A stretch of 60,298 nucleotides of DNA, the filler included, from Hausera hauseri (lineage: Eukaryota): the NCBI GenBank assembly GCA_046269625.1. It is 10 parts of 10 records of this genome, joined end to end, with 100 filler letters (N's around TTAATTAATTAA, not from the genome) between each part and the next. Parts side by side here need not be neighbours in the genome. Positions count along the whole stretch, not along the records: positions 41,901 to 48,139 come from JBJURY010121539.1; 9 more parts are not named here. One strand, given 5' to 3'. Shown here in pieces: positions 6,078 through 56,472 of this stretch. The position numbers were made by a program, and so were the translations under genes. Numbering within the stretch: position 1 is the stretch's first letter; each line of letters begins with the position of its first letter. A model generated the notes under the pieces. The model did no database searches, was not told the DNA's origin, and worked only from the letters and a program-made list of their open reading frames with translations.

Positions 6078-6177
6078 NNNNNNNNNNNNNNNNNNNNNNN
6101 NNNNNNNNNNNNNNNNNNNNNTTAATTAATTAANNNNNNNNNNNNNNNNNNNNNNNNNNNNNNNNNNNNNNNNNNNN
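6078..6177. other. Artificial contig spacer (44 N + TTAATTAATTAA + 44 N)
   Basis: The same six-frame-stop linker occurs at 6122, 16196, 20502, 28269, 32796, 37208, 41845, 48184 and 53681. The gaps at 29863-29872 and 56770-56906 lack the linker and are ordinary scaffold gaps. Confidence 0.97.
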
Positions 6178-6384
6178 CTCATCCTAGAACCACATCAATT
6201 TTTTTCTCTGCGGGGGGGGGGAGTTAGGTAATGTGCTCACATCGTACCACTCATGCATGCATTGAATTTCTTGCTACTTACATTATATCACCATACATCT
6301 GATATGAGATAATATATATGTCAAAAAATTGGTAAAAAACATTATAATTAAGAGGCGGCAAAACTTATGTTAGGTATGATGTAT

Positions 6385-6672
6385 GGATGATATATTGAAT
6401 GATTTTCTTCGACACATCAAATTATTCGAAGGATCATAGGAACTTGTCCTTGTCAAATAAAATTTTTGTGGAAATTTACGGACAAAGTAAACAGCAAAAT
6501 TATTACTGCTTATGTTGGACTTTGTTCGAAAATGTACGCTCTTAATGTGGATTAACGAATAAAGAAAATGGCCAAAGGTGTTCACAGAGCTACACTTGAG
6601 AAACATGTCGTTTCAAGATTATATCTGGGTCCTTAACAGGCAATCAACACTATTATCAGACATGAGGCGATT
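6385..6672 (+). pseudogene. Polinton/Maverick-type protein-primed DNA polymerase B remnant (C-terminal region)
   Basis: Across a frameshift it reads FDTSNYSKDH...NKI..(G)KFTDKVNSKIITAYVGLCSKMYAL...KKMAKGV...SFQDY. This matches the typical pPolB 'FDTSNYP.DH...GKFKDE....I.EFVGLRSKMY...KAKGV' block. Confidence 0.8.
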
Positions 6673-13200: not shown

Positions 13201-15390
13201 AAAGACCGAACGAACGAGCGAAAGAACGAGCGAACGAACGAAAGAACAAACGAACGAAAGAGCGAAAGGACGGACGGGCGGGTGGATGGACGAACGAAAG
13301 AACGAACGAATGAACTAATGAACGATAGACCGAAAGAACGAAAGAAGGAACAAAGGAACAAAGGAACGGACGAACGAAAGAACGAACGAACGAAAGAACA
13401 AACGAACGAAAGAGCGAAAGGACGGACGGACGGAAGGAGGGACGAAAGAAATATGGAACGAACGAACTAATGAAAGAAAGGAAGAAAGAACGAAAGAACG
13501 AACGAAGGAACGGACGAAAGAAAGAACGAACGAACGAAAGAAGGAACGAACGAAGGAACGACCGAGCGAACGAGAGCAGGAAAGAACAAAAGAACGAACG
13601 AACGAACGAACGAAAGAATGAACGATAGAACGAACGAAAGAACGAATGAACGAATGAACAGTCAAACTAACGAAAGAACGAACAAAGGAAAGAAAGATCG
13701 AACGAACGAAAGAACAAACGAACGAAAGAGCGAAAGGACGGACGGGCGGGTGGATGGACAAACGAAAGAACGAACGAATGAACTAATGAACGAAAGACCG
13801 AAAGAAAGAAAGAAAAAAAGAACGAACAAACGAACGAAAGAACGAACAAAAGAACGAAAGAACAAACGAACGAAAGAAAGAATGATCGAACGAATGAGTG
13901 ATCGAACGAACGAAAGAACAAACGAAAAAGCGAACGAAAGAGAGAACGAACGAACGAACGAAAGAACGAAAGAACGAAAGAAAGTAGGAATGGACGGACG
14001 AACGAACGGACGGACGAAAGAACGAAAGAAAGAAGGAAAGAACAAATGGAGAAAAGAACGAACGAACGAAAGAACGATCGAGCGATCGAAAGAAAAAACG
14101 AAGAAAGGCGCGAACGGACAAAAGAACAAACGAAAGAACAAAAAGCGAACGAACGAATGAACGAACGAAAGAAAGAAAGAACGATCGAAAGAAATAACAA
14201 ATAAACGAACGAACCAACGAACGATAGAACGAAGGAACGAATGAACGAACAAACGATATATCGAACGAAAAAAGGAACGATCGAAAGAAAGAAAGAAAAA
14301 AGGAAAAAGAGAAGGAACGGACGAACGAACGAACGAACGAACGAATAAATGAACGAACGAGTGAACGAACGAACGAACAAAAGAGAGATCGAGCGATCGA
14401 AAGAAAAAAACGAAGAAACACGCGAACGAACGAAAAAACGAACAAAAGAAAGTATGGTTGGACGGACGAACGGACGGACGGACAAAAGAACGAAGGAAAG
14501 AAGGAAAGAACGATCAAAATGACAAAAGAACGAACAAAGGATCGATCGAACGAAAGAACGAACAAACGAAAGAACGAACAAAAGAACGAACGAACAAAAG
14601 AACGAAAGAAAGAATGATCGAACAAATGAGTGATCGAACGAACGAAAGAACGAACGAACTAACGGAAGACCAAAAGAAAGAAAGAAAAAAAAACGAACGA
14701 ACGAATGAACAATCGAACCAACGAACAAACGAACGAAAGAAAGAACGAAGGAACGAAAGAACAAAAGAAGGAACGAACGAAGGAACGAAAGAATGTACGG
14801 ACGGACCGAAGAACGAACGAAAGAACGGAGGAACGATCGAACAAACGAACGAACGGCCGAACGAACGAACGAACGACCGAACGAACGGACGATAGAACGA
14901 ACGAATGAACGAACGAACGAAGGAATGAGCGAACGAGCGAACGAACGAAGGAACGAACGAACGAACGAATGAACGAACGGAAGAACGAACGAAAGATCGA
15001 ACGAACCAGCGACCGAAAAGTGGAACGGACAAACGAACGAAAGAAAGAACGGGCGGACGTAGGAATGGACGGACGGACGAATGAACGAACGATAAAACAA
15101 AGTAACGAACGAGCAAACGAATGAACGAAGGAACAAACAAAAGAACGAACGAGCAAATGACAGAACGAAAGGAAGAACGAACGAACGAAAGAAAGAACGA
15201 ACAAAAGAACGAAAGACCGAATGAATGAACGAAAGAACGAACGAAAGAATGAATGAAAAAAGACCGAGCGAACGAGCGAACGAACCAAAGAACGAACGAA
15301 CGATAGAACGAATGAATGAACGAACGAACGATAGAACGAAAAAAAGAAAGTACGAACGAAGCATCGTGAATTTTATTTTGTACGATGGCG
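7273..15390 (+). mobile_element. Interspersed non-coding element with an internal GAAC microsatellite (possibly Helitron/Helentron-derived, DINE-1/HINE-like), here massively expanded
   Basis: 7273-7740 aligns colinearly with 34360-34830 (GTTTTCCCCACCT; ATCGGTAGAGCT(T/C)GACGA; GGCGCTAGAAG; AACATTGGGAAAAAT(T/C)GATGGGAAAATTT; AGCATTTCATATT; GGATCC..GTGAA). After the satellite both copies resume with GCATCGT. The superfamily assignment is tentative. Confidence 0.55.
7730..15362 (+). repeat. About 7.6-kb degenerate (GAAC)n/(GAAA)n satellite
   Basis: Continuous GAAC/GAAA/GAAT/GGAC tetramers, with a nearly T-free plus strand. It explains all the SFVR/ERTN-type pseudo-ORFs in the ORF track. Confidence 0.98.
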
Positions 15391-15817: not shown

Positions 15818-16151
15818 AGTAGTTAGAAGTGAGGAGTTGGCCCCCCAACCCCCCCAGGGAAGGAAGGAAGCCAATGGGAGGACGACACGTCATTGTGGGA
15901 AGGAAGGAAGCCGATGGGAGTAGACGACCAATAAGAAGCAAAGCTGGGGCCAAGTGGGTTTCACTATTACCACCCCAGAACAAAGGCAACTGGGTCTCAC
16001 TATTCCCACCCCTTATTTATGAAAAAAGATGAGAAGAAATAAATATTTATTAATAACGTAAGTACAATCAAATAGAATAATGTCCATATGCGACACTATG
16101 GTTTTTATCAACCCAGTGTCGTTTATCGTCAAAGGGATCCAGTGCTTTCTT
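15818..16151 (+). mobile_element. Polinton/Maverick terminal inverted repeat (element continues past the contig end)
   Basis: Starts AGTAGTTAGAAGTGAGG (AGTAGT is a canonical Polinton terminus). Contains CCAAT/CACGTCAT subrepeats and TGGGTTTCACTATT repeats. Homologous to 41461-41800 and, inverted, to 37264-37382. Confidence 0.8.
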
Positions 16152-28324: not shown

Positions 28325-29862
28325 TGATGATAACTATGAGTGAGTGCGAATATGATAATGGCGAATGTGATACTGGAGAATCGAAAATGACATGGGAAAC
28401 CTCGGCAAGTAAATGTCAGTTAACGCTGCTAAAAGAAGGAAAGTTTAACAAAACAGTAGGAAAACGGCGGAAAAAGAAACAGCTACATATAAAGAAGGAA
28501 CAAAGGAAGTCAAGATGGCAGAAGTGGCTACAATTGTATATTCGGAAAACCCAGAAGAAATGACGCGATTCAAAATCACTGGAGTAGCAAATAAGTGTAG
28601 CGAAGAAATATCAAAAACCAACTATAAGTGTATATTCTTACCGAGAAAAGAAATACCCCGTGCGAAAACCAAAATAGACAAGAAAGATATAAAGCTAACA
28701 CAATATTTCGATAACAAGATCGATTTTCTAATCAATTACGTAAGGAAAGAAATTAGAGGTTTATATCGAGAAATAATAATGAATGAGTGCAAATTGAACT
28801 ATAAAATAATGCGTAATAAAATGGCATTGGTAATAACGAATCCCGACATGGTAGCGCCAGTAATGCCCTTTGGCGATGGAATTATTGGAAGAGTGATGGA
28901 CTGATAACAATAGAATGCAAAAAGGTGGAAGGATCAATGAGGCCAGTAGACGAATGTACAATGGAATTACCCGTAGTTTATCACTCAGAAGCGCGATATG
29001 TTATGCCTGTGACTAGGATATTAATAGATATTAATGTAAAGTCTACTGTACTATACAATTGCACTTTTAATATGCCGCCAATGTTTAAGATCGACAACGA
29101 CAAATGGATTAGAATGCCAAAAAGAGAACTAGTGTCTAAACCGGAGATGTTAAGTTTGATTAATTTGCAAAGGAATCAGAAATTTGAACCGTTGACAGGA
29201 ATATCACAAGGAGGAATCTATACCCAACAAAATCTAGAAGACTATTGACGAATGTTGTTATTCCCACAACAAAGACAACTAGTTATAACAGAACTAACCA
29301 GGAGAGTAATGTGGGATGTCGAAGGATCACCACAATGGGAAAACCTAATGGGGAAGGATTATCTAAAGAAAGTAACAAGAAATATTATGGAGATGTGGGG
29401 AAAGTTCCTATATTTTGGCCAAGCAGCTTCCGGTTTTCTAGATATATATTTTTTATTAGCACCTTACGGACAATATTTACGGCACTAGCATATGGAATAC
29501 ATGCAGCAGTAGGATGCTCATGGAAAATTCTAATAGCCGTAACACCGGCAGTAGTCAGTTGTTTCCTAGCAAACCACGACACACTATGGAAAAGGAAGAT
29601 TCTACAAAGGAAAGATGGAAAAGATTCCCCGTATAGCATACCTGATGATAACGATATTGAATGTGATCAAGTAAAAGTAAAAGCTAAACATAGACGAATG
29701 ACCGGTATTAAACAAGTAGTGCTTAAGACACGAAAGCCGAAGTATAGACAGAAGTTAATAACTGATTTACCCCATCTAGATCCCGTAGATGAATACCATG
29801 GAGAGTTATATAACGAGCAACAATTAGTGAATCCTTCAGCTCCCCGATACGTAGTGCATACA
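28325..29862 (+). pseudogene. env: Chuvirus-like / gB-type envelope glycoprotein, C-terminal half, membrane anchor and tail
   Basis: CEYDNGECDTGESKMTW...C, YFDNKIDFL, C.L..KIMRNKMALVITNP, GIIGRV, C.KV....RPVDECTMELPVVY, P.TRIL, C....PPMFKI...W, GGIYT, LLFPQQR, WGKFLYFGQAASGFL plus a hydrophobic stretch, and a tail with PSAP. Confidence 0.85.
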
Positions 29863-29959
29863 NNNNNNNNNNAACAAAATTTTGACGAAAATGTGATACA
29901 CAATAAACGTGAATCTACGTATAAAACTTATGATAAAAATGAACAACAACAACCACCTA

Positions 29960-32751
29960 TAAGGCCAGAAAGGGAGATAGAGGTGAATTGATACCCAATG
30001 ACGGCTTTGCTAGACACTGGATCTACAACGACGATAATGGGAAGAAGCCAATTACCAAAAGAGTTAACAAAAAACTACGAAGACCGACAACTACCTTTGT
30101 GAATGTAGGAGCATTCGTCACAGAAGAGGAAATTAAGATGGTCTTAGATGCCAAAGTTAAGATCGGTGAACAGATTGTGAAACAAACTATACGGATAGCA
30201 CATAATCTGACTAACGAGATTCTAATTGGATGTGATATACTAAACCAATTGGAAAATGTTTATATAGGTGTGAAAACATGCCAACTTAAGACGTTCAATG
30301 GAGATCGTAACGAGAGAATGGTTTCTCTAACAAGAGACATCACGATTCCACCACGATCAGAGATAGTGGTACCTGGAGAAATAGAAAGTCGTGCATACCG
30401 GTGGTTACATATTTTCAACCATTCCCACAGGTTATGGAAAAATTTGAAGTCCTAATCGCCCGTCACGCAGACAAATTAAGAGACGGAAAAGTCCTCTTAC
30501 GAATTTGTAATACAACAAACAAAGAAAAACGATTACAGAAGGATATTAGACTGGAAAAAGTAACAATCACTGAAGAAATAATAAAAGAAGAAAATTGCTC
30601 AATAATTTCAGATGTAAATAAAATAGAAAAGATAATGACAGAAAAACTGAAAAGGAAATCAGACGGAGACAAAAGAAGAAAGAAAACCACGAACATCAAT
30701 TGGAATGAGAGGTTACAAAAATGTAAAATCTTAAATAAGAAAGAGAAGGAGATGCTAATCGAATTGTTGGAAAAGAATAACAGTCAATTTGCACAAACTG
30801 ATTATGATCTAGGCACAATGAAAATAATACAGCATACCATTAAGTTAAAAGAAGGGACAAGATAAACCAATTAAGAAAAGACCATATTGATTAGCATACG
30901 ATAAAAAAACAGGAAGCGAGTAAAATAATAAACGAAACGAGAGAAAACAAGATAATTCGACCAAGTTGTTCCCCATGGACAGCGCCAGTGGTAATGGTCA
31001 AAAAGAAAGACGGAACTATGATATTTTGCATAGATTATAGAGCATTAAACGAAATAACGGAGACGGATACATATCAATTACCAAGAATTGACGAAATACT
31101 AGATAAACTACACGGATCGACAATATTCTCAACCATCGATTTACAAAAGGGTTACTGGCAAGTGGAGGTGAAAGATGAAGACAAACCAAAGACAGCCTTC
31201 TCAATTAGAGAAGGGCTATGGAAATTTAATAGGATGCCATTTGGACTAAAGAATGGACCGCCAACATTTCAGAGAGGGACCGAACTCCTGCTGTTAGATG
31301 CCCCACATGCCATGGTATATATAGATGACGTAATAATAGTTCCACCAAATTTTCAACATCTAAGGGATCTACAAGATCTCTTCGATAGATGCGAAATAAT
31401 GGGTCCAAAAATAAACCCAAAATGTTCATTTGCTCAAACGGAAGTAGACTTTCTCGGGAACAGAATAGATAGAGATGGTGTAAAACTGCAAGACAAGCTG
31501 TTAGGAAAAATAAGAGATTTCCCAAAGCCAGGTACAGTTAAAGAATTACGTCAATTTTTAGGTTTGGCAAACTATTACCGAAGATTTATAAAGGATTTTA
31601 GCAAAATTGTGAAGCCCTTGTATGAATTAATACGTGTAGACTTAGATAAAGTTATTTAGACGAATGAATGTGAAAAAGCTTTTGAATATTTAAAAGATAA
31701 ACTGTTAACTGCTCCTATATTAATCTATCCTGATATGATCAAACCATTTATTTTAGCAACAGACGCAAGTGATTATGGTGTAGAAGTGTTGTCACAAAAG
31801 GGTGAAGACCGTAAGGAACATCCAGTAGCTTACGCTTCACAAAAAATCAATAAACACCAGAAGTATGCGGTAATTGAAAAAGAACTATTGGCAGTAATAT
31901 TTTTCTTGGAAGTATTTTCGTCCTATATTAGTGCAAATAAACCTTTGATAATCTACACAGATCATAGACCACTTCAATGGTTAAAACAACATGAAAATCC
32001 AAATAGTAGACTACTACGATGGACTCTAAAGTTGCAGCCATATACACTGAATTTCCAGTATAAGCCTGGAACACGAAACGCAAGTGCGGATTACCTATTC
32101 AGAATACCCAATAAACCAGAAACAGAGAAAGCAGTAGTCGCAGCCGTATGGAGGATGGATGGATCCGTAGAAAAAATCAAGGCAAATCAAAATGAAGATA
32201 CTGAAATAAAAGCCATTAGAAATATATAAAAGATAAAACCATGTCAGCTGACAGGGAATTAGCTCGCCATCTGGCCAGATTCAGTGAAGCTTATGAAGAG
32301 AAAGAAGGATTTTTATACTTCGTTCACCAAAACAGACCCGCTTTAGTAATTCACAAGAAAAATAGAACAGTTTTGTTAACTCAATGCCATAATGGACTAC
32401 TTGGTGGACATCAATCAGCAAACAAAACACTTAATAAGTTTGAACGAAAATACTTTTGGCCGACGATAACGAAAGATGTACAGGATTGGTGTGACAGTTG
32501 TAATTTATGTGCTATCCTGAAGAACACGGGAACCAAATACAAAGCACCTCTCAAAGTATAGGACAACCCTCCGGCACCATTTGAGTTTACCGCAATGGAT
32601 ATAACAGGACCACTACCGTTAACACGGAATGGAAAAAGATATATCCTAGACATTATTGACTATTTCACTAGATGGGTTGTTGTCCTACCAATGGCTTATA
32701 TGAAGGCAGATACAATCGCTAAAAAATTTGTGGAAAATATAGTATTTAATT
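29960..32751 (+). mobile_element. pol: Gypsy pol: protease - dUTPase-like spacer - RT - RNase H - integrase (truncated)
   Basis: RPEREIEVN*YPMTALLDTGS (LLDTG at 30007-30021), ILIGCDIL, ITIPPRSE, FCIDYRALN, MPFGLKNGP, YIDD (~31318), FLGLANYYRRFI, LATDAS, EKELLA, TDHRPL, integrase H..LLGGH..C..C and IIDYFTRW. Confidence 0.93.
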
Positions 32752-37263: not shown

Positions 37264-37382
37264 CGATGACGTGTCCTCTTCCCATTCGCCAGTTTCACTT
37301 CCCCTCGATGACGTGTTCTCCTCCTATTGGCTTCCTTCCTTCCCTGGGGGGGTTTGGTGCCAAGTCCTCACTTCTAACTACT
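37264..37382 (-). mobile_element. Polinton/Maverick TIR ending ...CACTTCTAACTACT
   Basis: Reverse complement of 41461-41580 and of the TIR at 15818. Followed by TTCGTG (putative TSD, 37383-37388). Confidence 0.85.
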
Positions 37383-39570
37383 TTCGTGATTGTCATTTTA
37401 AAATCTGCCCAATGAGCCGGTATTCTGCACAGAAGCAATTCTGGAGTACAACGAAACATGGTTCGCACAACAATGGCGACGCCGTACTGATCAACAAACT
37501 GCATAGTGCTGCAGAACTTGAAAAAACGCAAATTAAATGGAATATAAAAAGCTTCCAGGAACTGTATTACAGTATGGTTCGATTATACAGCTTCTCCATA
37601 TCTAGAGTAACAAAATACTAACTGTCAATAAAAAGCTCCCGGCTTTGTTAGAAAAAACGCAATGCGGGTGTATTTAGACGTTAATGGCAACGAAGGATCT
37701 TGGTTATATGTTCAACCGTTTTATAAACACTGTTCAGTTGGCGATAATATTGTTGTTGGGGACAAAGCGATATTGAATCCCGTCAACGCTGGGCAACCAT
37801 TGCATGTTAGTCATTACGATTTATTAGATCATATCGAATGCAACGAAGTAAATGCTGTGAACTGTAGTACATCATCGTAAATCACACTTTTCATGGATTT
37901 CAAGGAAAATATTGACGATGTTTTAAAAGGGTGAAATCTTGTGAGACTGTTTCATACCGAACAAGAAAAGTTTTTGACCTGTGATGAATACAAAAAGGAA
38001 AGATACGTTTTCCTTCATACAATAGCTCGCGCAACTGTAACTCCTGCAACGGGTATTCCAATTGATAGGGATGCTGAAAAACCAATCATGCACAACGTAT
38101 GCTGTGCTTTGTTGGAGGAAGACAAAGAAGCTTTTGCAGTTGCACCGATATCTGCTCAAAAAGTTCCAGATTTAGATTTTTCTAACGATGCCAGTAAAGT
38201 ACTTTCTGTTGTAAAGCAAAAAATTATACAGCTCGCCGCCAATGATAAAATTGTCTATAACCTTCTTTCCTTAATTGTGCAGTTCCTTTGTTCACTGGAG
38301 GACACAACTGGGGACCCATTAGAATTGGAAGTAAAATGCATTACTAGATATCGTCGGAAATTATCAAAAGAAAAAAATATTTTGAAGCAGATTTTTAAAA
38401 TACTCGAAAGTCCACTGTTAACCGATTTCCCCATTAAAATGGAAGACTTATCTGATCAGAAAAATATCGCGTTTAAAAATATTTGCCGGCTTTGTTACAG
38501 AATTCTAAAACTATTCCAGCAAGACTCGGAAGAATCAGGAATACATTGCAAAGCAACTTCCGATGATGCAAAAAAGATTGGCTGCGGCATTTTGCCTGAA
38601 GATACTGTGACTGCTTTGTTGCATAATAATCGGAAACTGCTAGAAAAACACATTACAGTATCTGAAATAAATACTTTCATAAATTTAATACGGAAGGGAA
38701 CAGATAGCAGATTTTTGGATTACTTATCAGATTTATGTATATCAACAATATTGCCATCCCTGTGACACAGGAATTGATCTGCAAATGTATATTTAATGAA
38801 GAAAATCAGGATATTCTGATAAAGACATTTATATACAAGAAAATTGAAATTGAATATGAAGTTAAACCCGATTATGGATTTGAAGATGATTACGTATTAA
38901 ATATGGCTGAATATGATAAAATCAAGGAAGCGCAGACAATTTTATAAACCGAGGAAGAAGACACAATCATTTATTGGGAATGTGGAAAACATTCTAGAAT
39001 CTTTTAGAATTAGTTCAAGCAGCCAATAATGGCTCCAAAGATGATGAATCAATTCTAAGCTATTACAGATGTCAGTTTGTACTTTTCTCGAATCTTTGTT
39101 TGGACCGTCAGTATTTGGCCATAAATGACTTATCAAGAGAACAAAGTACAGATCTTATGTTAAGTGCATCTCCACTGATATGTTGCCACATAGTCTTCGT
39201 GCCTCATTTTGCCGTTTGTTGATACATTTACATGTGGATAGAGATCCACAAAATGTTACGCAATCTATTAAATTCGCAAGACTATAGGCTGACCTCCCGG
39301 AATCAATGGATATTGACAGTAACGAAACTACAGACTCGGAAGACGAAGTCAAGGAGGAAGTGAAACAAAATTTTACACCAGTTATCAGCTTTGTAGAAGA
39401 ATGACTAAATAATGTCGTCAATAACAATTTAATGCTCTCAATTCAGAACAAAATAAACTTACATTCGAGATTGAAACTGGTTTGACATCTTATATATTTT
39501 GGTTTCTACTCATTCCATGATTTACTTCAGTTAGTGAAAACTTTACTAAGAATTCTGGATTGTGTCATCC
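37383..39570 (+). pseudogene. ITPR: Inositol 1,4,5-trisphosphate receptor N-terminal fragment, intronless and disrupted
   Basis: [139 protein letters not shown]. No introns seen over ~2.2 kb. Internal deletion, stops and frameshifts. Confidence 0.93.
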
Positions 39571-39880
39571 CTTCAAAGACACCAACTTCGGACCTTTCGA
39601 TAACCTTTGCATATCCAATTTTGTATGGAAACAAATCGCTTCCAAAATCAGAAATGAAAAATTATTTAAACTGTGCCGATCAAATAATGCGTATTTCAAA
39701 CGAATATTTCGCTTCTACACACAAAATAAGCTTATTGATTACCAATTTCGGCGTGTTTTGCAACCTTACAGTCTCCGCTTTATCCGCTCCAGATATTTAT
39801 GTGCGACTGCCCATTAAGACTGACGAACCCCGATTCATTAAACGCAGTGAAACAAGTAAGAATTCGGCCACCCTGCATTT

Positions 39881-40563
39881 TGGTGCCCGCCCCGCCGGGG
39901 CGGAGGTCCCGACCGCCAACCCTGCGCCGGTTGGTCGGACGGTATCTTCGGCGTCGGCCCCACATCACGCCCCCAGGCGCACCACTTTCACTTCCATTTT
40001 TTTAACAATATACATATCACCACCTTCAATACAACACATCCACACATTCCCGCCCTTCAAACATGCGTTTCTTCCTTACTTAATTCTTCCGACTTTTACC
40101 TTACCCATAACAACGCTCTCATACATTTCAACGGAACTCTACCTTCTTTCTCAAATCACACTTGCTTCAACATACATCTCCGTATCAGCGGTGGCATGAA
40201 TTCTTCGGCAACCATTGACACCACGGATACAACCACTACAAAAAAGGCAATACCCATTCTCTACTACCCCAAACCAAACCATCTACCTACTTCAATCGAT
40301 GCAAATTCTTCTCACAAAAATCCTACCAATACTTCTCCACATTGCACTGAATACTTCATAGATAATGAAAAGTCCAGCAAAACTTTGCTCCACTTCCATC
40401 AACTCTGGTTATAGTCCAACGGTATCACAGACTCGTTATCCGAAGCCCATAACCTACTTTATCTTCTACCAAACTCTATAAAGGCCTCAATCCATAACCT
40501 ACTTGACATCTTTCAACACTCTGACCCTTATACCCAATTGTTCGATGCTGTGTTAAAACAGAC
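39881..40563 (+). mobile_element. CsRn1-like gypsy 5' fragment: PBS-like motif, GC-rich leader, truncated gag (ATG 40196)
   Basis: TGGTGCCC at 39881 is followed by hairpins (CCGCCCC-GCC-GGGGCGG). The gag N-terminus MNSSATIDTTD...DPYTQLFDAVLK is homologous to that starting at 50774. Confidence 0.7.
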
Positions 40564-40564
40564 A

Positions 40565-41065
40565 TAAGAAGACGATGCTTATCTTCGACGTCCAATCAGC
40601 ATGCGACCTGACTTTGTTGATGTATATCAAAACAGAGGAGACATTTTATAAAACTTGGCAAATCGGATGAAGCAAGAAATAAGTATATAACCGCACTTCA
40701 ATATAGGCAAAACAGTGCAGATTTGCACTACAATTTGGGTGTTGTAAATATGGAAATGAAAAGGAATGATGAAGCTATTAATTGCTTTTATGCATCGCTC
40801 AAAATTGATCCCAATCATAAACACGCACGGTTAAGTTTGGCATCGTTTTATTCTGACAATCCAGAGAAGCGAGAAGAAGCCAAAACAATATATTATGACC
40901 TAATAAAACTAAATTTCGAAGTCGAGAAATGTCATTTTGCTCTTGCTATGATGGAAACGGATGATAAAATTTCCAACTTGCTGAGAAACATTATCTTCAG
41001 TCGCTAAAGTATGATCCAACGTCTCGTGGATCATTATTCAATCTTGCCTTATTGCATAACAATGA
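40565..41065 (+). pseudogene. TPR fragment of a TMTC-family (TMTC3-like) protein, intronless and disrupted
   Basis: ISMRPDFVDVYQNRGDIL, ADLHYNLGVV..E....EA...F..SLKIDPNHKHA, LAMMETDDK, RGSLFNLALL follow the order of the TMTC3 TPR region. Confidence 0.7.
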
Positions 41066-41397
41066 ATTTATGACGTTTGTTTTAGTTGAATATTGTATTT
41101 ACTATCAGTTGTACAGAGTTGAATAAAAAATTGATTTTCTGCCATTTTTTGAACATTTATTTGACGTTTTTCAGAAATCAGGCAATTTCAACCGTTTGGA
41201 TTTTTTTTATTGCGGATATTAATCATACAACTATAAATTGGTGTCAGATTTTACCTCTAAATATTCGAAATTGGAGCTATTTGTTCAAGATGCAATCAAA
41301 GCAGAAAGCAGGATTTAAATTCAATTCCTTTAAAAAGAATCCAAGTACTAAAATAACTCCTAATGAACCGATCATTTTCCCAAACAAATCCAATACG

Positions 41398-41460
41398 AAC
41401 GACCGATGTATTGTTCAACCGTCAGATGGTGATCTAAGGAATCCGCCAAAAAGTTTTATG
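41398..41460 (+). pseudogene. ITPR: ITPR fragment that belongs immediately upstream of 37383
   Basis: NDRCIVQPSDGDLRNPPK corresponds to ITPR 'DDRCVVQP..GDLNNPPKK', whose continuation 'FRDC.FK' is at 37383. Confidence 0.85.
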
Positions 41461-41800
41461 AGTACTTAGAAGTGAGGACTTGGCACCAACCCTCCCCCAG
41501 GGAAGGAAGGAAGCCAATAGGAGGAGAACACGTCATTGAGGGGAAGTGAAACTGGCGAATGGGAAGAGGACACGTCATCGGGGGGGAAGGAAGTAAGCCA
41601 ATAGGAGTAGAGGACCAATCAGAGAGCATTGATGCCAATTGGGTTTCACTATTCCCACCCCGGAACAAAGCCAATTGGGTTTCACTATTCCCACTCCGGA
41701 ACAAAGTGGTTTCACTATTTCCACCCTTATTTATGAAAAGCGATGAGAAGAAATAAATATTTATTAAAATACAATCAAATAGAATAATGTCCATATGCGA
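41461..41800 (+). mobile_element. Polinton/Maverick TIR (element continues past the contig end)
   Basis: Starts AGTACTTAGAAGTGAGG, preceded by TTTATG (41455-41460). Homologous to 15818-16092. Confidence 0.85.
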
Positions 41801-41900
41801 NNNNNNNNNNNNNNNNNNNNNNNNNNNNNNNNNNNNNNNNNNNNTTAATTAATTAANNNNNNNNNNNNNNNNNNNNNNNNNNNNNNNNNNNNNNNNNNNN

Positions 41901-44177
41901 ACTCCGGTAACACGACCAAGTACATCAACTATGACACGTGAAATGATAACTAGTCCCATTATGGAACTTAAGAAAAGTATCAAAGAATTGGACATAATTA
42001 TCCAACCAACAACTTATTCATTGATTATCACAGTATCTGACTTAAAGAACACGAACATAAAATTTGAATGCCACCTTAACCACAAAATTATAAGCGAAGG
42101 AGTTTTAACTCCGGAAGAGCCCACATCAGCTTGTATGCCTTTGGAAGCTGATACGAATTACAAAGTAATCATAACGGAACTAGACGAAGATGGACAGACG
42201 TTACAGACTGTTAGGAAACTAGAGAAAACGTTAAGATTACCAATGGTTCTTACGACAAAAGTTATAAAAACCACTACTATACGAATCTCAACGGAAAATT
42301 CCAATAGATATCTCTGGATGATTATCACCCTAGGAGTTCTCTTAGTTTTAATAATTATACTACTACCAATTACAATTTATTGTTCTAAAATAAGACGTAA
42401 AACGCGTAAAACTAAGATAATGATGCAAAAATTAAAATTATTAAGAGAGGCATCCCAAGACGACGATTTAGTAGACGCGCCCCCTCAAGCTGAAATGCTA
42501 CCAGATTTTAAACGGCTATCTCAACCGTTAACAAATGTTGCACTATATATATGCACACATGTAAGAAATAAGGCTGCAAAAATATTAGCAACCTACCAAA
42601 GTAATAACTATAAACATTATAGGCTGCAAAGCTCTATGCGACCTAACATGTATTTATTTTTAAGAAGTTTCCCATGGCTATTATTGATTTGTTCTATTTT
42701 AGTTCAAGAAGGTGCCGAAACAGTAGAGAGGGCCAAGTCCTTCTACTACAATATATCCTCCAATCTAGAATCCACACAACACAAGGATTACCTTTATTTC
42801 GGAAAGGCCTCACTGATTCCTAATAATCTTAAAGGCCATTTGGTTACTCAACGATCAGGACTAATTATTAAATTGCCTAACACATCCACCTTACTATCCG
42901 ACTTAATCGACATATCCACAAAAACAACGTCCGTATATTTGTCAGTCATAAAAGCCAGTCTCCAACTAAAAAGTAGAAGCCACAGAAATAATATGACCGA
43001 CTTAATGGATATCGTTCCTTTTACTACCATCCGACTCGATCAGCGGTTCTATAAGAATGCCACAATCACGTTACGGACCTTTGGAGGACCTAGTCCTATT
43101 TTATACGTCGAAGTTACCAGACGTGAGACAATACCTCGCCCAGAATATGAAGTACCTATATACAATCTTCCTTTTCCTAACAAATCTCAACTCGAAGAAG
43201 GATGTTCCTTCTCCAGGATATCTCCAGTTTCAAGAAACCAAGTGATAATCTTATCCACCAACGTCGCCTACCTCATGAGAGACGCCCGTTCAGAAGCTAC
43301 TCTCACAGAAATTACTCTGATGGACCTAGAAGGCAAAGTTATTTTCGATCAATTTATCACTCCGAGAGACCGCGTGGATAATTATAACACTCAGATAAGT
43401 GGGATAAAAGAAGCAGATGTAATCGGCCAGGCCGACCAATATCAAATCTGGCCTACTATCCGGCGACAATTAGTGGGGAAGATGCTAGTAGGCATGACTC
43501 TATTCAAAATTAATTCTCAGTTAGCCCTCTTTAACATGGATCAAATAATGGGCCTACGTGATCTGTTCTACAACGAAAATATAAATCCAAAAAGAACATT
43601 GACCCAAAAACAGCTTTTCCTAAAGTACAACAACATCAAGTATCCGACTCGAACAAAAGACAAGGCCCAAATTATCTTGGATATCTATAACACCTTAAAG
43701 GAATACCAAAATGAAAAATCAAATTCGGATTCTATATCAATAGTACCAAAAATTTCGAACGAATTTTCAATCTTATCTGACAAAGACATTATCTTGCCTA
43801 CTAACGAATCCATGGATGTAGATCATATGGAAATAGAATCCCCATCAGAAGTACCTTTAGATTCTGCTATAATTTCAAATTCAAATAGTCAATTAAAACC
43901 ATCAACGAGCAATATCCAATCAACACCAATCGTTAGTTATAATGAGATCGCAACCACAGATTCAAAAAGAAAAAGAAAAAGAATTCCCAGAGACCAAACG
44001 ATTACATTAAAGCTCAAATTTAAAAAGAAAGGGCTGTGGCGACACTATGAATCCTCCAGCTATCGATTAGACAATGGCACCTTGGAAATCTATCCAGCAA
44101 TGCTGCGGACAGCATTGACTGAGGAGGGGGTTGTTGATATTACAGATTCTCAAGTTACAGACGTTGTAGACGATTAA
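41901..44177 (+). CDS. Retroelement 3' ORF (5'-truncated): beta-rich/FN3-like segment, TM helix, second hydrophobic segment, degenerate DEDDh (ISG20/REXO4-like) exonuclease
   Basis: Open from the contig edge for >750 codons without stops. TM at ~42309-42383 and a second hydrophobic segment at ~42648-42706. ~43240-43690 reads 'LTEITLMDLEGKVIFDQFITPRDRVDNYNTQISGI...IRRQLVGKMLVG...LRDL', the REXO4/ISG20 pattern. The ORF end overlaps the PPT. Confidence 0.75.
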   Translation, partial: TPVTRPSTSTMTREMITSPIMELKKSIKELDIIIQPTTYSLIITVSDLKNTNIKFECHLNHKIISEGVLTPEEPTSACMPLEADTNYKVIITELDEDGQTLQTVRKLEKTLRLPMVLTTKVIKTTTIRISTENSNRYLWMIITLGVLLVLIIILLPITIYCSKIRRKTRKTKIMMQKLKLLREASQDDDLVDAPPQAEMLPDFKRLSQPLTNVALYICTHVRNKAAKILATYQSNNYKHYRLQSSMRPNMYLFLRSFPWLLLICSILVQEGAETVERAKSFYYNISSNLESTQHKDYLYFGKASLIPNNLKGHLVTQRSGLIIKLPNTSTLLSDLIDISTKTTSVYLSVIKASLQLKSRSHRNNMTDLMDIVPFTTIRLDQRFYKNATITLRTFGGPSPILYVEVTRRETIPRPEYEVPIYNLPFPNKSQLEEGCSFSRISPVSRNQVIILSTNVAYLMRDARSEATLTEITLMDLEGKVIFDQFITPRDRVDNYNTQISGIKEADVIGQADQYQIWPTIRRQLVGKMLVGMTLFKINSQLALFNMDQIMGLRDLFYNENINPKRTLTQKQLFLKYNNIKYPTRTKDKAQIILDIYNTLKEYQNEKSNSDSISIVPKISNEFSILSDKDIILPTNESMDVDHMEIESPSEVPLDSAIISNSNSQLKPSTSNIQSTPIVSYNEIATTDSKRKRKRIPRDQTITLKLKFKKKGLWRHYESSSYRLDNGTLEIYPAMLRTALTEEGVVDITDSQVTDVVDD
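44121..44130 (+). promoter_or_regulatory. Polypurine tract
   Basis: GAGGAGGGGG followed after 1 nt by TGTTGA. Confidence 0.7.
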
Positions 44178-44952
44178 ATTCAACTTAATGCAAATACCAA
44201 ATTCGATGCACACATAAACTTGACACATAAACCTGACTTATTTAATTTAATTGTCTTCACTTGTTTTATTGTATTCATTTATTTTATTTATTTTAAATGT
44301 CCGTTTCTCATTACATGTAATCGTATTTATTTATCTGTCGTAAATTTATTGGTGCTATAAAATATCCATTGTGGAATTTTTAATTTGATACACTACCACA
44401 GAAAGGGTATATAAACCCGTGGTGTTGGAAAACAATATAGAAAATAGTTTATGATTAACTTTCTTCCCATGCTTGTCAGACAGTTCTCTTGTAAGTGTTT
44501 GTATTCTATCTCATTTTTGCTTATATTTTTACGCACTGTAAAGATTCTATATTGATTTTAATTATAATATTTTAGAGTATTCTTAATTGTGTTTTATTTT
44601 ATATTCCTATTAAGTAAGATAAGTAAAAGTAAACTTGAGTAGTAAGGTTATTAATTGGATAAAAGATACCCACTTTCTTACGGACATAAAAATCCGTATA
44701 AAGCTAAAATTTACCTAAAATCTGGGGAAAGACACCAGTGTTCCTCCTGGTGATCGAACTTACACATATATAAACTTAACTGTCAAGCCGACCCCACAGG
44801 CGGCTTTTAAGAATAAATAAATTACCTTGGTTTGTGGAGACACATACCACGAACTACCTTCCACTGATTGAAATAAGAATAAGTTTGAGGTTTAAGAACC
44901 CAAACTCTTTAAAGATCAATTTCATTTAATATCTTTTATCTCAAACTTATCA
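44132..44952 (+). mobile_element. Putative 3' LTR
   Basis: Begins TGTTGATA right after the PPT. TATATAAA at 44408, AATAAA at 44812, candidate end ...TTATCA at 44952. No second LTR in the window confirms the boundaries. Confidence 0.5.
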
Positions 44953-47900
44953 GTTTTAATTCTCTATTTAATGCACTGATTAGTCAATGGAATTGTTAGA
45001 GAATATTTTGCAGGTTAAAAATTAAAAAAAACTATTTTTGCGCAATTCCTAAAAAAATTTTGCTACTGTGCACTACTAACATTTTTGAAAGATTGGCATA
45101 GTGAATCTTCACCAACCTGAGAGTTTTTGTTTCTTATGGGCGCTTCTGTAAATTGGTGCGGCTTTTTCCCAGTGGAACCATCGCCTCCAATACTCCGGCC
45201 ACGTATAGATAGTGATGTTACTGTGGTTTGGTAAATGTATGTGGAGAAATTGTTAAGGAGACATCCATATTTGTCATGTTAACATGCGCATTTGAAAATT
45301 TCACATCACGATTTTTCATCATTTGTACATTCCATTTGTGGTTGTTCGTTTTTAATTTTTCATTTTGCAGCGAATTGCCGAAATGACAGATCGGGAATTT
45401 TATGTGGGAATAATCAACCGAAATAATTATTTCATCAATTCGAAAAGCCAAAGAAAATTGCATGACCAAAACCAGTAAATTCCACAAATAAGAACTGAAA
45501 AAATTCTTGTATTGTTAATTGATTTTGACATTTCAACTGTGGTGTCACCGTGTTTCGGGCCCCCTGATCCATTACGGCCGGGTGCGTTGGCTTTGCACCA
45601 ATTACACAGTTTGCTGGACCTGTTTGTCCTCCCTCAGGGAGTTTGGCTATGGTTGGACTATCCGACCACTCCGAGTTTATCGAACAAATCAGTAGCAGAA
45701 AATATCCCTCAACCAAAATTACAGAGTTTAAAAATGCACATTAACTGCAACGAATGGCAACTCCAATACAGATTATATCCTTTGTGACATTTTTGATCGT
45801 ATCACCGACATCAAACAATATTTGAAATCTTATGGTTGCTTCATTGTGTGATACCAAGCCGTGGACCATTGAATCAGTCGCATTTCATCACAATTCTGAA
45901 AATTTCGTGATTTCCACATAATATCGATAAAGTTTATTCGTCAGTCGTTTCATCGTTCGAGTTAATTGCTAAGCGATACAGTCAATTGATAAGTACAAAA
46001 TACACACGACGATCTAACTGATATTAAAATTTTCTTAAAGATATTATTTTTCGGAAAGCTAATGAAACAGTAATTCCGGCAAATTGCGTAATGGTGATGT
46101 CAAATTTACAGAATATATACGTTCAGAGTCAGTACAAATAATACGGTTCGTGCAACCTAATGTTGAAAACGTGTCAATTTCATAATCAAAAAAACAGTCG
46201 ATGCACATATTTGGCATCATTCCTGCACTTAGGAAGGGTTTCAGAAATTCAGAAAAAATCAACATATTAGATCCAATTTATGGACAAAATGTCATGAATA
46301 CCGATATTAATGAAATGGAAGCGGTTTACTTCCTACCTCCCATTTATAAACCATCAAATGTACTTGATATTAGCAGAATAATTGAATAACTAGACAGATG
46401 GAATAACGAAGAATCTTACCCAGTTATTGGAGCAAAAAGTGATATAGAAAATTGCAAGAAAAAATACGTATAGTAATAGGCTAATTAAATAAATTCGTGG
46501 CCCATTTTTCGGTATGTGGTCCCTTCAGGACGACTGTTTAAAATCAATGTGACTAAGGGGAAAGATCGTCAGTGTACCTCCTGACGGAACTTACTCATTA
46601 AGGCTAAGTAACCTAAATCAATTGTCTAGCAATCCCATAGGTTGCTATTTGAGCAATTAAATAAAGTTTAAGTTTGATGTCGCGAGACCCAAGCTCATCG
46701 CCGATCATTAAACTTAACAGTTGGATTCTGTGTAGATCGTAGAATAGCGAATTGGTAAAAGTATTGTCTAGCTGCTGACGACGTGAGGAATAGCTATAAG
46801 TATTTGCTGGATAATTACATCGTAGGATCAGTGGTATTACTGGTGTTATTCTTTGACCGATTGGTGATTTCTTCAAGTGATAGATGATGATGAATCTCCC
46901 ATCCGGAATTTCGAGTAATTTTTGCAGTAAATTGATGCATTCAAAAGAGTTTTATTTGTTTAAATAAGGAACCATATGTTTGAATAAGCATTGGTTTTCA
47001 GCATTTGCAGTAAAACATATTCAAAATATATGCTTGGTTAACACAGAACATGTTTTGAGCATGCAGGTCATTCTATCCTGGTTTTCCACTGTCTCTATGG
47101 TCGTGTAAGAAATTTCAGGTTAATCGTGTTTGTTTACCATGAAGTGTGCGAGGAATATACTGAGAATGTACCAGTGCATGGAAAGAAACAATTACGAGTG
47201 ATACCAAACCCTTTCAAGAGCTCTGAGAACATTCATTTATTGGAATATTCTGTACATTTATGAATTACGTATTTATAATTTATTCAAATTCTAGACTTCA
47301 GTTTTCATCTCTTCTTCTCTCTTTATGGCTGCACGCTGTTCCTCCCGTCGTTGCTGCAAATGATTACATAGAACAAAAAATATTACCTTAAATATATAGT
47401 CAAGGAAATATTTGTATAGATATACATGGCATACTAAACATTCTACTACCGGTACGAATATATAAAGCACACTAAACATTCCATCATAAAAAAATAGGCA
47501 ACAGAAAAGTATACAATATATAGCCAAAGAAATATTTTTTAATAAATATACATTTCATGACTGTTCCATTTCGCCAGTAAATTTTATAAATTCATTTTGT
47601 TAGAACCAAATATGTTAATCTGATTCCATTTGCAGTTTGAATTTTCTTTCAACACCATCAGCTCTCATGTGGTCTGGATATTATAGTATCAATAACCGTA
47701 AGACTTTTCTAATTAAGTACACAAAGTTGGAGTTATCTCCATTCCTCAAACTGGATCGCTACAATACCATTTATTTTTTTACCTGCAGACAGGTAAATAC
47801 GATAAAAACCTGAATGACTGTCAAAACTTGTTATCTGTGTGTGTGAAATCCTGCTAATAAAACGATGTATAAGATTTAAAGTCCCTGATAAGTTAACGAG

Positions 47901-48239
47901 CCAATGTAAAATAAATGCATTATAAACCATGATTTATACATTTTTCAAATTCAAAAGTCATATTTCAACGCATAGCCTATACTGTTAGACTGCATCATTC
48001 ATCGTGTTCTCCTCATAACCCATTCAAGAAACATTCTGTGAGGTCACGGTGATGTACACATGAAAATGTTTCCTCCAAATGAAATAACTTTTAGCACTGT
48101 TAATGCATAAAATGATCTCCAGAGCCATAAACATGAATGNNNNNNNNNNNNNNNNNNNNNNNNNNNNNNNNNNNNNNNNNNNNTTAATTAATTAANNNNN
48201 NNNNNNNNNNNNNNNNNNNNNNNNNNNNNNNNNNNNNNN

Positions 48240-54750: not shown

Positions 54751-56472
54751 ATTGGGTGGGCAATATATATGTGGGCACTCATGCAACCCATGCCAACAGA
54801 TTTTCCCATAAGTAGAACTAGTTACGATAATTTCAGCACCAAGAAGTTTAGTTACTACACCCAACAGAGTATGGAATGGTTATCTTGGGTTATCTTGGGT
54901 TTCGCATATTAATAACGTTAGTTTAAGAACACAGTACAACGGTCGCGAGAAACGTTTAGGTCTCAATGGTTATAGCGTAGATGGGTGGGATAAAGAATCG
55001 CGAACGGCTTACCAATTTCATGGGTGTAAGTTTCACCGCCATCCCGATTGCCGACTCACCCGTGGTAAGACCGTTAACTCCGTCAACAACAAACCATTGA
55101 TGGAGTTGTACGAGAAAACTCAAAATTCGAGAGCAGCTAGAGAAGGAAGCTAATGAAGTCGTGGAGATGTGGGAATGAAACTGGCAGGATCTGAAAGAAT
55201 CGGAGCCTACGATCATGGGCTTTCTCAGTACAACGCCTTTCTATGGGCGTTCTGCCTTCCAACATCCACCAACCGAAAAGCAGATTCTCACGGCGATTGA
55301 GAAAGGTACATTTTTTGGATTGGTAGAGTGTGGCATAAAGGTCCCCGAAAAGTTGGAAGCTCATTTCTTTGAAATGACGCCAATTTTCAAAAACGTTGAC
55401 GTCTCTAGGGACGATATCTGGGATTTTATGCGCGAGCACCTATCAAAAACAAGCTCTTGACGCGTCCACGTCGTACACTGGTAGGAAGTTACAAGGATGA
55501 AAAGATCCTTCTTGCCACACCGTTGTTAAAATGGTATCTGTTACAAGGCCTGGAAGTTACGAAAATCTACCAGATTATCGAATACCGCCCAATGGCTTGC
55601 TTCCAAACGTTTGGTGAAAGCGTCACGAATGCTCGGCGCAAGGGGGATCTGGACGACATGTACTCCATCACGATGAAATTGTTGGGGAATGCCGCTTATG
55701 GAAAGATCCTAGCAAACAAAGCCAAACATACAAAGGTGGCTTATTGTTCTGGTGAAGCTTCTTCGCTCTTTGTAAATAATCCTCGGTTTAAAAAGATGAC
55801 CGAGATTAACGAGGTCAAACTGTTTAAGGATAAAGTTGTTTGGGATATCCCTCTCCAAATAGGTTTTTCGTGTACCAGTACGCGAAATTGCGAATGTTAG
55901 CTTTTTATTATGATTTTATAGACGTTTATATAGATAGGTCAATTGTATGAGATGGATACCGATAGTCTTTATTTGGCCTTAAGTAAAGAGACTTAGCTGA
56001 CGCAGTCAAACCACAGGAGAGAAAGAATTTTTTTAGTACGTCCGACTCGTGGTTCCCAGCAAAGGCTTGTTCCGACCATACGTCGGAATTTATTCGTAAG
56101 GAGGATAAGGGGGTAGTAGATTGTCAGGCCTGTAGGGATAGACCGTTAAAAGATAAAAGAACTCCAGGGCTTTTTACGTTAGAGTACTCGGGTCGAGGGA
56201 TGATATCACACTGTCCCAAGACTTACTTCTGTTATGGCGACCACGACAAAATCAGCACAAAAGGATTAACAAAGGGACACAAAACATTAGATAAGGAAAC
56301 AATTTTGTCAGTTTTAGAAAAAGAAAAACCACAGGGAGGGACAAATATAGGTTTTAAAATACACAAAACATCGATTTACACTTACACCCAACATAGAAAG
56401 TCACTTTCATATTTATACATTAAAAGGCAGGTTCAGTCAGACAATGTTACTACACTTCCACTAAAAATTTAG
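54751..56472 (+). pseudogene. Polinton/Maverick protein-primed DNA polymerase B (type with an inserted Vsr-like FHGC..H segment), disrupted
   Basis: YMWALMQPMPT, VDGWD..SRTAYQFHGCKFH, EMTPIFKN, ILLATPLLKWYL..GLEVT, MKLLGNAAYGK, YEMDTDS, KRTPGLF.LE, KTYFCYG, STKGL, YTYTQ.RKSLSYLY.KR.V..D...T.PL.I*. Confidence 0.92.

Follow-up and report, generated by a model that had tools for sequence, protein, structure and literature searches.

At the 3' end of a multi-copy LTR retrotransposon of Hausera hauseri, we identified a reading frame whose product, P0001, is very probably an element-borne double pseudo-enzyme, in which an AlkB-fold domain devoid of iron ligands is joined to an ISG20/REXO4-like exonuclease domain with all five catalytic residues replaced. 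As judged from the sequences, a whole mobile family is defined by this two-domain module. The family is strictly bimodal, its members being either active-type or dead nucleases.

Reading frame and 3' end of the element

The window, that is, the whole stretch of DNA analysed (60,298 nt), consists of 10 unrelated contigs parted by 9 artificial spacers. P0001 is encoded on the plus strand (41901..44177) by an intronless frame without stops, and the odds of 757 stop-free codons arising by chance are approximately 6e-25. The protein comprises 757 aa counted from 41904 (residue 1 in the numbering used here), and the first ATG lies at 41931. Among the 72 listed ORFs of at least 120 aa in the window, this is the longest non-satellite one, followed by an ORF of 287 aa, which bears out the sequence-only reading that had singled it out as the only long uninterrupted non-satellite ORF. 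The same reading called the ORF intact and described its setting as a window of pseudogenes. However, the frame is open up to the very start of the contig (base 41901), directly after a strandless 100-nt contig spacer, N44-TTAATTAATTAA-N44 (41801..41900), where the element is cut off, and the pseudogenes sit on other contigs and are not the genomic context of P0001. Because the frame is open beside the spacer and the repeat depth is maximal at that edge, the gene is 5'-truncated by the assembly, and what remains of the ORF probably formed the tail end of a longer polyprotein or FN3-TM ORF.

The 3' fragment of the Gypsy-type element spans 41901..44952 (plus strand), with a read depth of hundreds to thousands over most of this region compared to 3-7 in the unique flank (run X1), and the repeat stops sharply, exactly at 44952. 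The polypurine tract GAGGAGGGGG (44121..44130, plus strand) is followed by a 3' LTR of ~820 bp (44132..44952, plus strand), which starts with TG at 44132 or with TGATA at 44135, ends in TATCA and contains, on the same strand, a TATA-like element (44408), an AATAAA (44812) and a terminal hairpin (44879-44951; z -2.45, with 5 of 200 shuffles folding equally well). The stop codon of the ORF is located inside this putative LTR just past the polypurine tract, as noticed previously. The retroelement origin proposed at the same time is corroborated by the multi-copy status, by the polypurine tract with its adjoining LTR, which has TG...CA ends, and by homologues encoded downstream of RT-RH-INT in two metagenomic loci (see below). 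At 44952 contigs stop or diverge, the 12 loose ends examined out of 27 revealed no conserved PBS, and the 5' end is absent. No further copies of the element are present on the other 9 contigs of the window, and a scan of 13 loci of the family within 400 nt of the respective ORFs, several of these loci ending early, revealed no adjoining polypurine tract or LTR. The fragment represents the truncated 3' terminus of a multi-copy LTR retrotransposon, likely a giant Burro-like Gypsy.

Upstream of the polypurine tract, the frame encodes an S/T/N-rich low-complexity linker (43728..43958, plus strand) that differs between copies; read depth drops there to 43, compared to 338 and 1182 in the bins on either side, with 36 letters at a repeat skipped. 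It is followed by the NLS-like basic run KRKRKR (43965..43982, plus strand), found where it had been reported. K/R runs of at least four residues are present in the tails of many relatives. Another C-terminal motif, spotted by eye in 11 relatives, was rejected as a feature of P0001, whose tail does not match it (rank 727).

Two enzyme folds without catalytic residues

An AF2 model of residues 245-620, built from 39 sequences (pLDDT 88.9), contains two domains. The C-terminal one (43239..43727, plus strand; motifs at 43254, 43488 and 43647) adopts a DnaQ-like fold in the predicted model and matches ISG20 with a Z score of 18.2 (rmsd 2.4 A, 159 aa). Pfam alone is weak on this domain of P0001 (RNase_T, E 0.067), but the family profile matches ISG20L2 with an E value of 6e-31, so that profile and structure searches both recover the DEDDh fold recognized earlier from the sequence alone. 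The replaced motifs STNVA, VGMTLFKI and TRTKDKA were found as claimed. At the catalytic positions D, E, D, H and D, two of which we take to correspond to E13 and H149 of ISG20, P0001 carries S, N, I, T and K, retaining none of the five. The catalytic residues of ISG20 include D11, D94 and D154 (PMC7756014). The domain is barely basic, with 21 K/R against 18 D/E.

The N-terminal domain of the model, residues 266-409 (42699..43130, plus strand), is an AlkB-family (2OG-Fe(II) dioxygenase) fold without the HxD...H...R ligands. This whole domain, which precedes the exonuclease and follows the second hydrophobic segment, was missing from the earlier list of domains. The predicted model shows a DSBH fold with an AlkB-type N-terminal extension and matches AlkB-family structures with Z scores of 11.5-12.8 (rmsd 2.6-3.1, 137-141 aligned residues), including Ofd2 (Z 12.8, rmsd 2.6, 137 aa) and ALKBH6 (Z 12.8). 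AlkB enzymes are characterized by an HxD/E...H iron triad and an RxxxxxR motif. With the strands placed via profile alignment rather than superposition, HxD/E occurs in the expected segment of only 2 of the 42 family rows, P0001 not among them, and RxxxxxR in none; the HxD...H...R signature is absent across the family, active-nuclease members included. A dUTPase reading of residues 285-430, suggested by eye from an RSGL motif, was ruled out because this region folds as the AlkB-type domain.

It is very unlikely that a new active site has arisen in one of the two folds and that the protein is still an enzyme. Family-wide conserved residues do persist in both, namely IPN.LK, a His in the third barrel strand (36 of 42 rows) and an E/D in the last strand (41 of 42) of the AlkB region, and PR, D, G and GxRD in the nuclease, and Glu occupies the Exo III position in 8 of the 17 dead rows. 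However, P0001 itself has Ser at the conserved His and Lys at Exo III, and the replacements differ among the dead members, without a common new motif.

The family, its selection and its linkage to Gypsy pol

Among the 48 family rows in which all five catalytic columns are filled, 31 retain five of the five residues and 17 retain none or one. Because the family has many active-type members, the dead state appears to be that of a derived paralogue. The family loci number 17, three of 20 loci (L018-L020) having been set aside as non-members. In quick and fast trees, from which rows with over 25% or 20% gaps were left out, the family forms one clade, distinct from the REXO4-like proteins of hosts (SH-aLRT 99 in the quick tree), and P0001 groups with the dead copy encoded directly after pol in loci L015 and L017 (support 92). 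The dead rows are long-branched and their grouping received SH-aLRT values of 66-80, with P0011 placed outside; their monophyly is neither established nor rejected (p-AU 0.195). A word-index protein search with residues 10-620 retrieved no relative among 7953 candidates, the same type of search with alignment A2 retrieved one among 7997, and 1817 longer proteins (1326-3785 aa) gave no match, which is weak evidence on other fusions. No relatives were detected in viral contigs (4 scans) or in prokaryote genomes; viral matches to the AlkB-fold region include AlkB domains in the replicases of plant RNA viruses.

In the metagenomic loci L015 and L017, a dead and an active-type ORF lie in tandem after a giant Burro-like Gypsy polyprotein with the order PR-RT-RH-INT-ankyrin-FN3-TM, comprising PR, RVT_1, RT_RNaseH, rve and ankyrin domains plus FN3-like repeats, preceded by a signal-like segment, and TM. 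Only these two distinct loci of the 17 (L015 having a near-duplicate, L016) reach RT. The expected link of the ORF to pol is thus an indirect one, via the RT-RH-INT region upstream of homologues, since the P0001 contig is cut before that region.

The substitution pattern indicates that purifying selection acts on the dead copy as it does on the active one. Between L015 and L017, dN/dS is 0.20 for the dead core and 0.24 for the active core, values that are rough given that dS is near saturation (1.5-2.1). Among the copies of the P0001 element, 19 of the 23 listed core changes are synonymous, compared to an expected fraction of 0.29, the 23 coming from the 40 best-supported of 805 differences, which are a filtered, non-independent subset. 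That P0001 is a neutrally evolving relic, or else a normal gene of the host, is hardly credible and already largely refuted: the contig does lack an RT, but the sequence is multi-copy with a sharp LTR end, intronless and rich in synonymous changes, and its homologues adjoin pol and stand apart from the host REXO4-like clade.

The tandem arrangement in both L015 and L017, with equal rates of evolution, might also point to a dead module that works together with the active-type paralogue, either as a non-catalytic subunit or in a regulatory capacity, through heterodimer formation or substrate hand-over, with the partner of P0001 supplied in trans by other elements of the genome. We regard this as quite improbable because in the P0001 element the dead ORF runs straight into the LTR, whereas in L002, L011 and L014 an active-type ORF (truncated in L011) follows the TM ORF without an intervening dead copy, so that the pair is not obligate in cis.

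Membrane segments, proposed role and relation to known systems

The N-terminal part of P0001 includes a putative fibronectin-type-III-like domain containing two Cys (residues 25-115; 41976..42248, plus strand). It was assigned as fn3 by Atlas (0.90, from 158 of 256 features) and resembles a repeat of the L017 polyprotein (BLASTP E 2e-6, 21/68; 13.3 vs 11.6 bits, a score that none of 1000 shuffles reached), which itself matches Pfam Fn3_Dep-1 at E 0.0016, under the cut-off; a single-sequence fold of residues 10-619, the FN3 region included, gave no usable model (pLDDT 35). The sequence-only reading of this segment as ectodomain-like agrees with its predicted luminal or extracellular location, its FN3-like character having been missed. 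A Thr-rich stalk (42249..42308, plus strand) leads to the transmembrane helix (residues 137-160; KD19 maximum 3.12, Kyte-Doolittle) and its basic stop-transfer cluster KIRRKTRKTK (together 42312..42419, plus strand). Next comes a second, weaker hydrophobic segment (Kyte-Doolittle 1.9), predicted to be signal-peptide-like, with a 12-residue core (42669..42704, plus strand); both segments had been correctly recognized. The fusion of a membrane protein to the exonuclease holds for P0001 but is not the rule, a stop separating the TM ORF from the nuclease ORF in all five informative relatives.

Our working reading of the role, held tentatively and by analogy, is that of a non-catalytic RNA-binding protein acting in the cytosol or nucleus. 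Dead DEDD folds that offer a precedent for nucleic-acid binding are PML PXL (PMC13659232) and Maelstrom and EXD1 (PMC5408684); these host-encoded proteins, some of them anti-transposon, could serve as a model for P0001, which is transposon-borne and for which RNA binding is proposed. An ancestral element would have acquired a nuclease of the REXO4/ISG20 type that was linked to an AlkB-fold domain, duplication would have given rise to active and dead paralogues, and in the P0001 lineage the dead paralogue would have been joined in frame to the membrane-anchored tail. The dead module would then face the cytosol from ER or particle membranes; alternatively, proteolysis might free it, or it might be translated from a subgenomic RNA that begins at Met245/249, and KRKRKR could direct it to the nucleus. 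It may shield the RNA of the element from host 3'-5' nucleases or compete with them. Most dead relatives lack a hydrophobic N-terminus, and K/R runs occur in many tails of the family, both in keeping with a role in the cytosol or nucleus.

Alternatively, the second hydrophobic segment may represent an internal signal peptide or signal anchor. The module would then be translocated and either cleaved off or anchored, and it would serve as a decoy or bind RNA extracellularly, whether in the lumen, at the cell surface or on an enveloped particle. The net charge is +2 before the core and -1 after it, a bias that would place the dead module in the lumen if the segment inserts; a bias of like direction is seen in P0002 (+3/+1) and P0011 (+1/-3), and L015 and L017 place a signal-like segment ahead of the FN3 repeats. 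We nevertheless consider export, although the main rival reading, unlikely: there is no excess of sequons (5 vs 3.6 expected; 1 vs 3.0 in P0002), the core of P0001 holds a single Cys, KRKRKR is kept, and P0002 and P0011 are the only other family rows with such an N-terminal segment, the remaining dead relatives lacking it. Less likely still is a broader scheme of two-component RNA handling in giant Gypsy elements, with an AlkB-fold reader and an ISG20-type nuclease in active and dead versions, the dead one being attached, in the P0001 lineage, to the membrane cassette of the polyprotein behind the internal signal and exported or displayed as a non-catalytic RNA-binding decoy against RNA silencing outside the cytosol.

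The P0001 family is a variation on the already known capture of nucleases by LTR elements. The Juno/Vesta LTR elements and Terminons of bdelloid rotifers carry a DEDDy ORF3 (PMC5408684). Here, too, a Gypsy-like element has captured a gene for a DEDD 3'-5' exonuclease, which is located downstream of pol and ahead of the 3' LTR. ORF3 is described there as RNase D-like, with intact DEED and without TM or coiled-coil domains (PMC5408684), whereas the P0001 family is DEDDh, with His in the active-type members and P0001 dead, and has the AlkB-fold domain, active and dead paralogues and, in P0001, the FN3-TM fusion. Burro/GYPSM1, a giant planarian Gypsy of over 30 kb (the LTR of the P0001 element being ~0.8 kb), is summarized in a review as encoding a pol polyprotein of great length that contains ankyrin repeats, an in-frame env situated between gag and pol, and MATH, BIR and BCL2 domains, its accessory ORFs possibly being polyprotein subdomains instead (PMC6431247). 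Ankyrin repeats in a giant polyprotein recur in L015 and L017; the P0001 contig does not reach that far, and the review's description of Burro, on which this comparison is based, gives no exonuclease, AlkB-fold or FN3-TM module (PMC6431247). Within the window, env ahead of RT is seen only on the contig at 28325-32751, in an element unlinked to P0001.

ISG20, ISG20L2 and REXO4 share the fold of the P0001 exonuclease domain and are its nearest sequence matches, but P0001 has replaced catalytic residues and extra domains and is element-encoded. The AlkB region shares its whole-domain fold with Ofd2, ALKBH6 and ALKBH7, at 6-10% identity to AlkB-family enzymes. The ExoN of the arenavirus NP, a DEDDh nuclease turned by a parasite against host RNA sensing, is a possible analogue of the active paralogues; unlike P0001, it is active, has a zinc finger and was captured independently (PMC7968707). 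Our literature searches found no Gypsy element reported to carry an accessory gene that is ISG20/REXO4-like or has an AlkB fold, although the extended data of Grohme et al. 2018 or Repbase may already annotate these ORFs, and no instance of a non-catalytic AlkB fold partnering a DEDDh nuclease.

How large invertebrate retrotransposons survive under small-RNA and nuclease defence is a largely open question, and the rotifer study assigned the captured nucleases no function (PMC5408684). The P0001 family provides natural active and dead paralogues of one two-domain protein, at times within one element, which makes the question directly testable. The putative FN3-TM surface modules are an addition to the cargo of Burro-like elements, and a transposon-encoded pseudo-nuclease would mirror the dead-nuclease defence factors of the hosts.

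Open reading frame and 3' LTR

The window is an artificial concatenation in which nine spacers (N44-TTAATTAATTAA-N44) separate 10 contigs, and the ORF encoding the 757-aa protein P0001 lies at the start of the contig 41901-48139. No stop occurs from 41901 to 44177, a length far above chance expectation, and among the 72 ORFs listed this is the longest non-satellite one, in line with the sequence-only reading, whose positions for the transmembrane helix TM1 (residues 137-160), the basic cluster, the second hydrophobic segment (42669-42704), the replaced nuclease motifs, KRKRKR (43965-43982) and the PPT also agree with ours. That reading had called the ORF intact, which it is not, since the frame is open at the contig edge. 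Moreover, the TM helix, with basic residues on its C-terminal side, follows an FN3-like domain that has a conserved Cys pair, an arrangement that would need an upstream signal, which is missing here. The ORF is real, but 5'-truncated.

DNA of this contig is present in three public sequencing runs. In run X1, 1460 assembled contigs aligned to it, and their depth, summed per bin, is 338-6392 in the ORF bins, the linker bin excepted (43), vs 3-7 in the unique flank, where the pieces are about 500 nt long and show no difference from the window; this contrast of two to three orders of magnitude is one of depth, which does not equal copy number. Resolved more finely, the depth stays at about 770-800 as far as 44951 and is zero from 44961 on; of the 16 listed pieces, six stop at the repeat boundary 44952, and three contigs continue past it into unlike sequence. 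In addition to this boundary, there are the PPT (44121-44130, plus strand), a TATA-like box, AATAAA and a TG at 44132 or TGATA at 44135 (plus strand) that corresponds to the TATCA at the terminus; together they identify a 3' LTR some 820 bp long downstream of the PPT. No PBS was seen beyond the LTR end among the 12 loose ends listed, out of 27. Both LTR ends are abundant, and the interior (44189-44604) has low depth with eight listed joints skipping parts of it, so that the interior differs among copies. Near the LTR end, 36 nt (44871-44906) overlapping one arm of a terminal hairpin reach about six times the depth of their neighbours, and a separate short repeat with an X1 depth of about 500 lies in the element flank (46477-46684).

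Elsewhere in the window, the contig 37264-41800 holds intron-free fragments of IP3-receptor and TPR genes and, near both ends, a 120-nt inverted repeat that recurs at about 15820-16090. A GAAC satellite occupies 7.6 kb (7730-15360). Fragments at 55409-56472, which by eye we take to resemble a Maverick/Polinton-type protein-primed DNA polymerase, gave no match in Pfam.

Two predicted folds and their catalytic residues

A phmmer search of P0001 against solved structures returned ISG20 (E 1.2e-4). An exhaustive protein search produced 61 hits, 39 of them members of a family combining an AlkB-fold with an ISG20/REXO4-like DEDDh domain (defined by about 150 common residues upstream of the nuclease, or by grouping with the family); the remainder are host-like REXO4 proteins or fragments. 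The host-like P0030, P0040 and P0061 carry four tandem REXO4-type domains, most without catalytic residues. The model of residues 245-620, built from 39 sequences (pLDDT 88.9), contains two predicted domains: in model numbering, 193-362 aligns with ISG20 (Z 18.2, rmsd 2.4 over 159 aa), and 22-165 aligns with dioxygenases of the AlkB family (Ofd2 and ALKBH6, Z 12.8; ALKBH7, 12.3; AlkB, 11.5). Foldseek agrees on ISG20-like and AlkB-like domains in the P0001 model.

The five catalytic positions of the nuclease read S, N, I, T and K in P0001. Of the family rows, 48 have a residue in each of the five columns; 31 of these retain all five catalytic residues and 17 (16 distinct) retain none or one, with no intermediates. 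HxD/E and RxxxxxR, which we take to be the AlkB iron and 2OG motifs and scored as such, occur in 2/42 and 0/42 family rows, respectively; this absence across the family makes it likely that, even in the active nucleases, the AlkB-fold domain acted as a binder.

In a quick tree of 72 rows, the family forms one clade apart from host-like proteins (SH-aLRT 99). P0001 has P0002 as its partner (99) and groups with L015a (the dead copy directly after pol in metagenomic locus L015), P0007, P0051, P0027, P0009, P0038 and P0049 (92). Dead rows form long branches, and their single origin is neither demonstrated nor rejected (p-AU 0.195). Of the 40 best-supported differences out of 805, the two-domain core holds 23, and 19 of these are synonymous (expected fraction 0.29); the synonymous share is 6/8 in the N-terminal part and 4/9 in the tail. 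All 12 indels shown, out of 65, are in the LTR. Between L015 and a second locus, L017, dN/dS is 0.02 for RT and integrase, 0.16 for ankyrin, 0.33 for FN3, 0.20 for the dead core and 0.24 for the active core, with dS near-saturated and similar across ORFs, as expected if the accessory ORFs were inherited with pol. In these comparisons, constraint is not relaxed by catalytic loss.

Relatives beside pol and the predicted membrane anchor

Our metagenome scan yielded 20 loci, 17 of them with family members; L015 has a near-duplicate, L016. In the 5'-open polyproteins of L015 (2368 aa) and L017 (2220 aa), protease, RT, RNase H and integrase are followed by another protease and by ankyrin repeats; a signal-like segment then leads into three FN3-like repeats, with a TM helix after them. 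Past the polyprotein stop lie two tandem family ORFs, the dead one first and the active-type one second. The second protease, after integrase and before the ankyrin repeats, is of retroviral type (L015:3-7106; L017:1-6660). Both loci have short direct repeats between their accessory ORFs, and in L015 a third downstream ORF (L015:10906-11517), whose C-terminal part is ubiquitin-like by eye, gave no Pfam match. In L002, a retroviral-type protease, an ectodomain and a TM precede an active-type ORF, and in L011 and L014 ectodomain-TM ORFs precede the family ORF.

The N-terminus of P0001 matches the first FN3-like repeat of L017 (E 2e-6; against L015 only E 0.011), and beats 1000 shuffles against a nine-repeat profile by a small margin; its best Atlas matches are FN3 clusters (0.90). 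Judging from these matches, the window shares the L015/L017 gene order, FN3-TM and then dead module, but in fused form: in 5/5 informative loci a stop and a gap of 173-1960 nt split the TM ORF from the nuclease ORF. Gap-free alignments of divergent contigs from a further public run, X2, cover stretches of the junction (42178-42445, 42508-42746 and 42717-43027), which points to a shared fusion without proving it.

Two further elements lie in the window. In a decayed Gypsy element (28325-32751), a fusion glycoprotein of mononegavirus type (PF24664) precedes the protease-like, RT and RNase H regions, a Burro-like env-before-pol order; the RT of this element shares 55-57% identity with the RTs of L015 and L017. 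The minus strand of 1-6077 carries a fragment of a second env-bearing element, with a gag-like ORF of CCHC type, coiled-coil ORFs and part of a PF24664 glycoprotein.

L015 and L017 resemble planarian Burro elements, in which the giant pol bears ankyrin repeats and accessory ORFs may be joined to the polyprotein (PMC6431247). A flatworm host seems plausible. Nuclease capture by LTR elements is already known in rotifers; however, the captured nucleases described there (PMC5408684) are intact DEDDy enzymes without a TM, whereas P0001 is dead and TM-fused. The Gypsy literature covered, including PMC11410931, contained no ISG20/REXO4-type, AlkB-fold or FN3-TM cargo. The novel points are the pol linkage of a doubly dead module, the tandem pairing of active and dead copies, and the fusion to a membrane segment.

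Possible RNA binding by the dead module

Catalytic relatives with the AlkB-type or the DEDDh fold bind nucleic acid. Dead DEDD folds act as binders in PXL (PMC13659232), Maelstrom and EXD1 (PMC5408684, PMC7968707), and an exonuclease-dead ISG20 mutant retains some anti-HBV activity (PMC7756014). By analogy, our preferred reading, held tentatively, is that P0001 is a non-catalytic RNA-binding accessory protein. The main doubt comes from topology, since the second hydrophobic segment, which shows an N-in/C-out charge bias in P0001, P0002 and P0011, might export the dead module; yet the segment is common only to these three proteins, sequons are not enriched and KRKRKR is retained, and export is the less likely reading. 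A regulatory partnership of the dead module with its active paralogue seems quite improbable. As an RNA binder, P0001 would hold RNA without cutting it and would shield the element RNA or compete against host 3'-5' nucleases.
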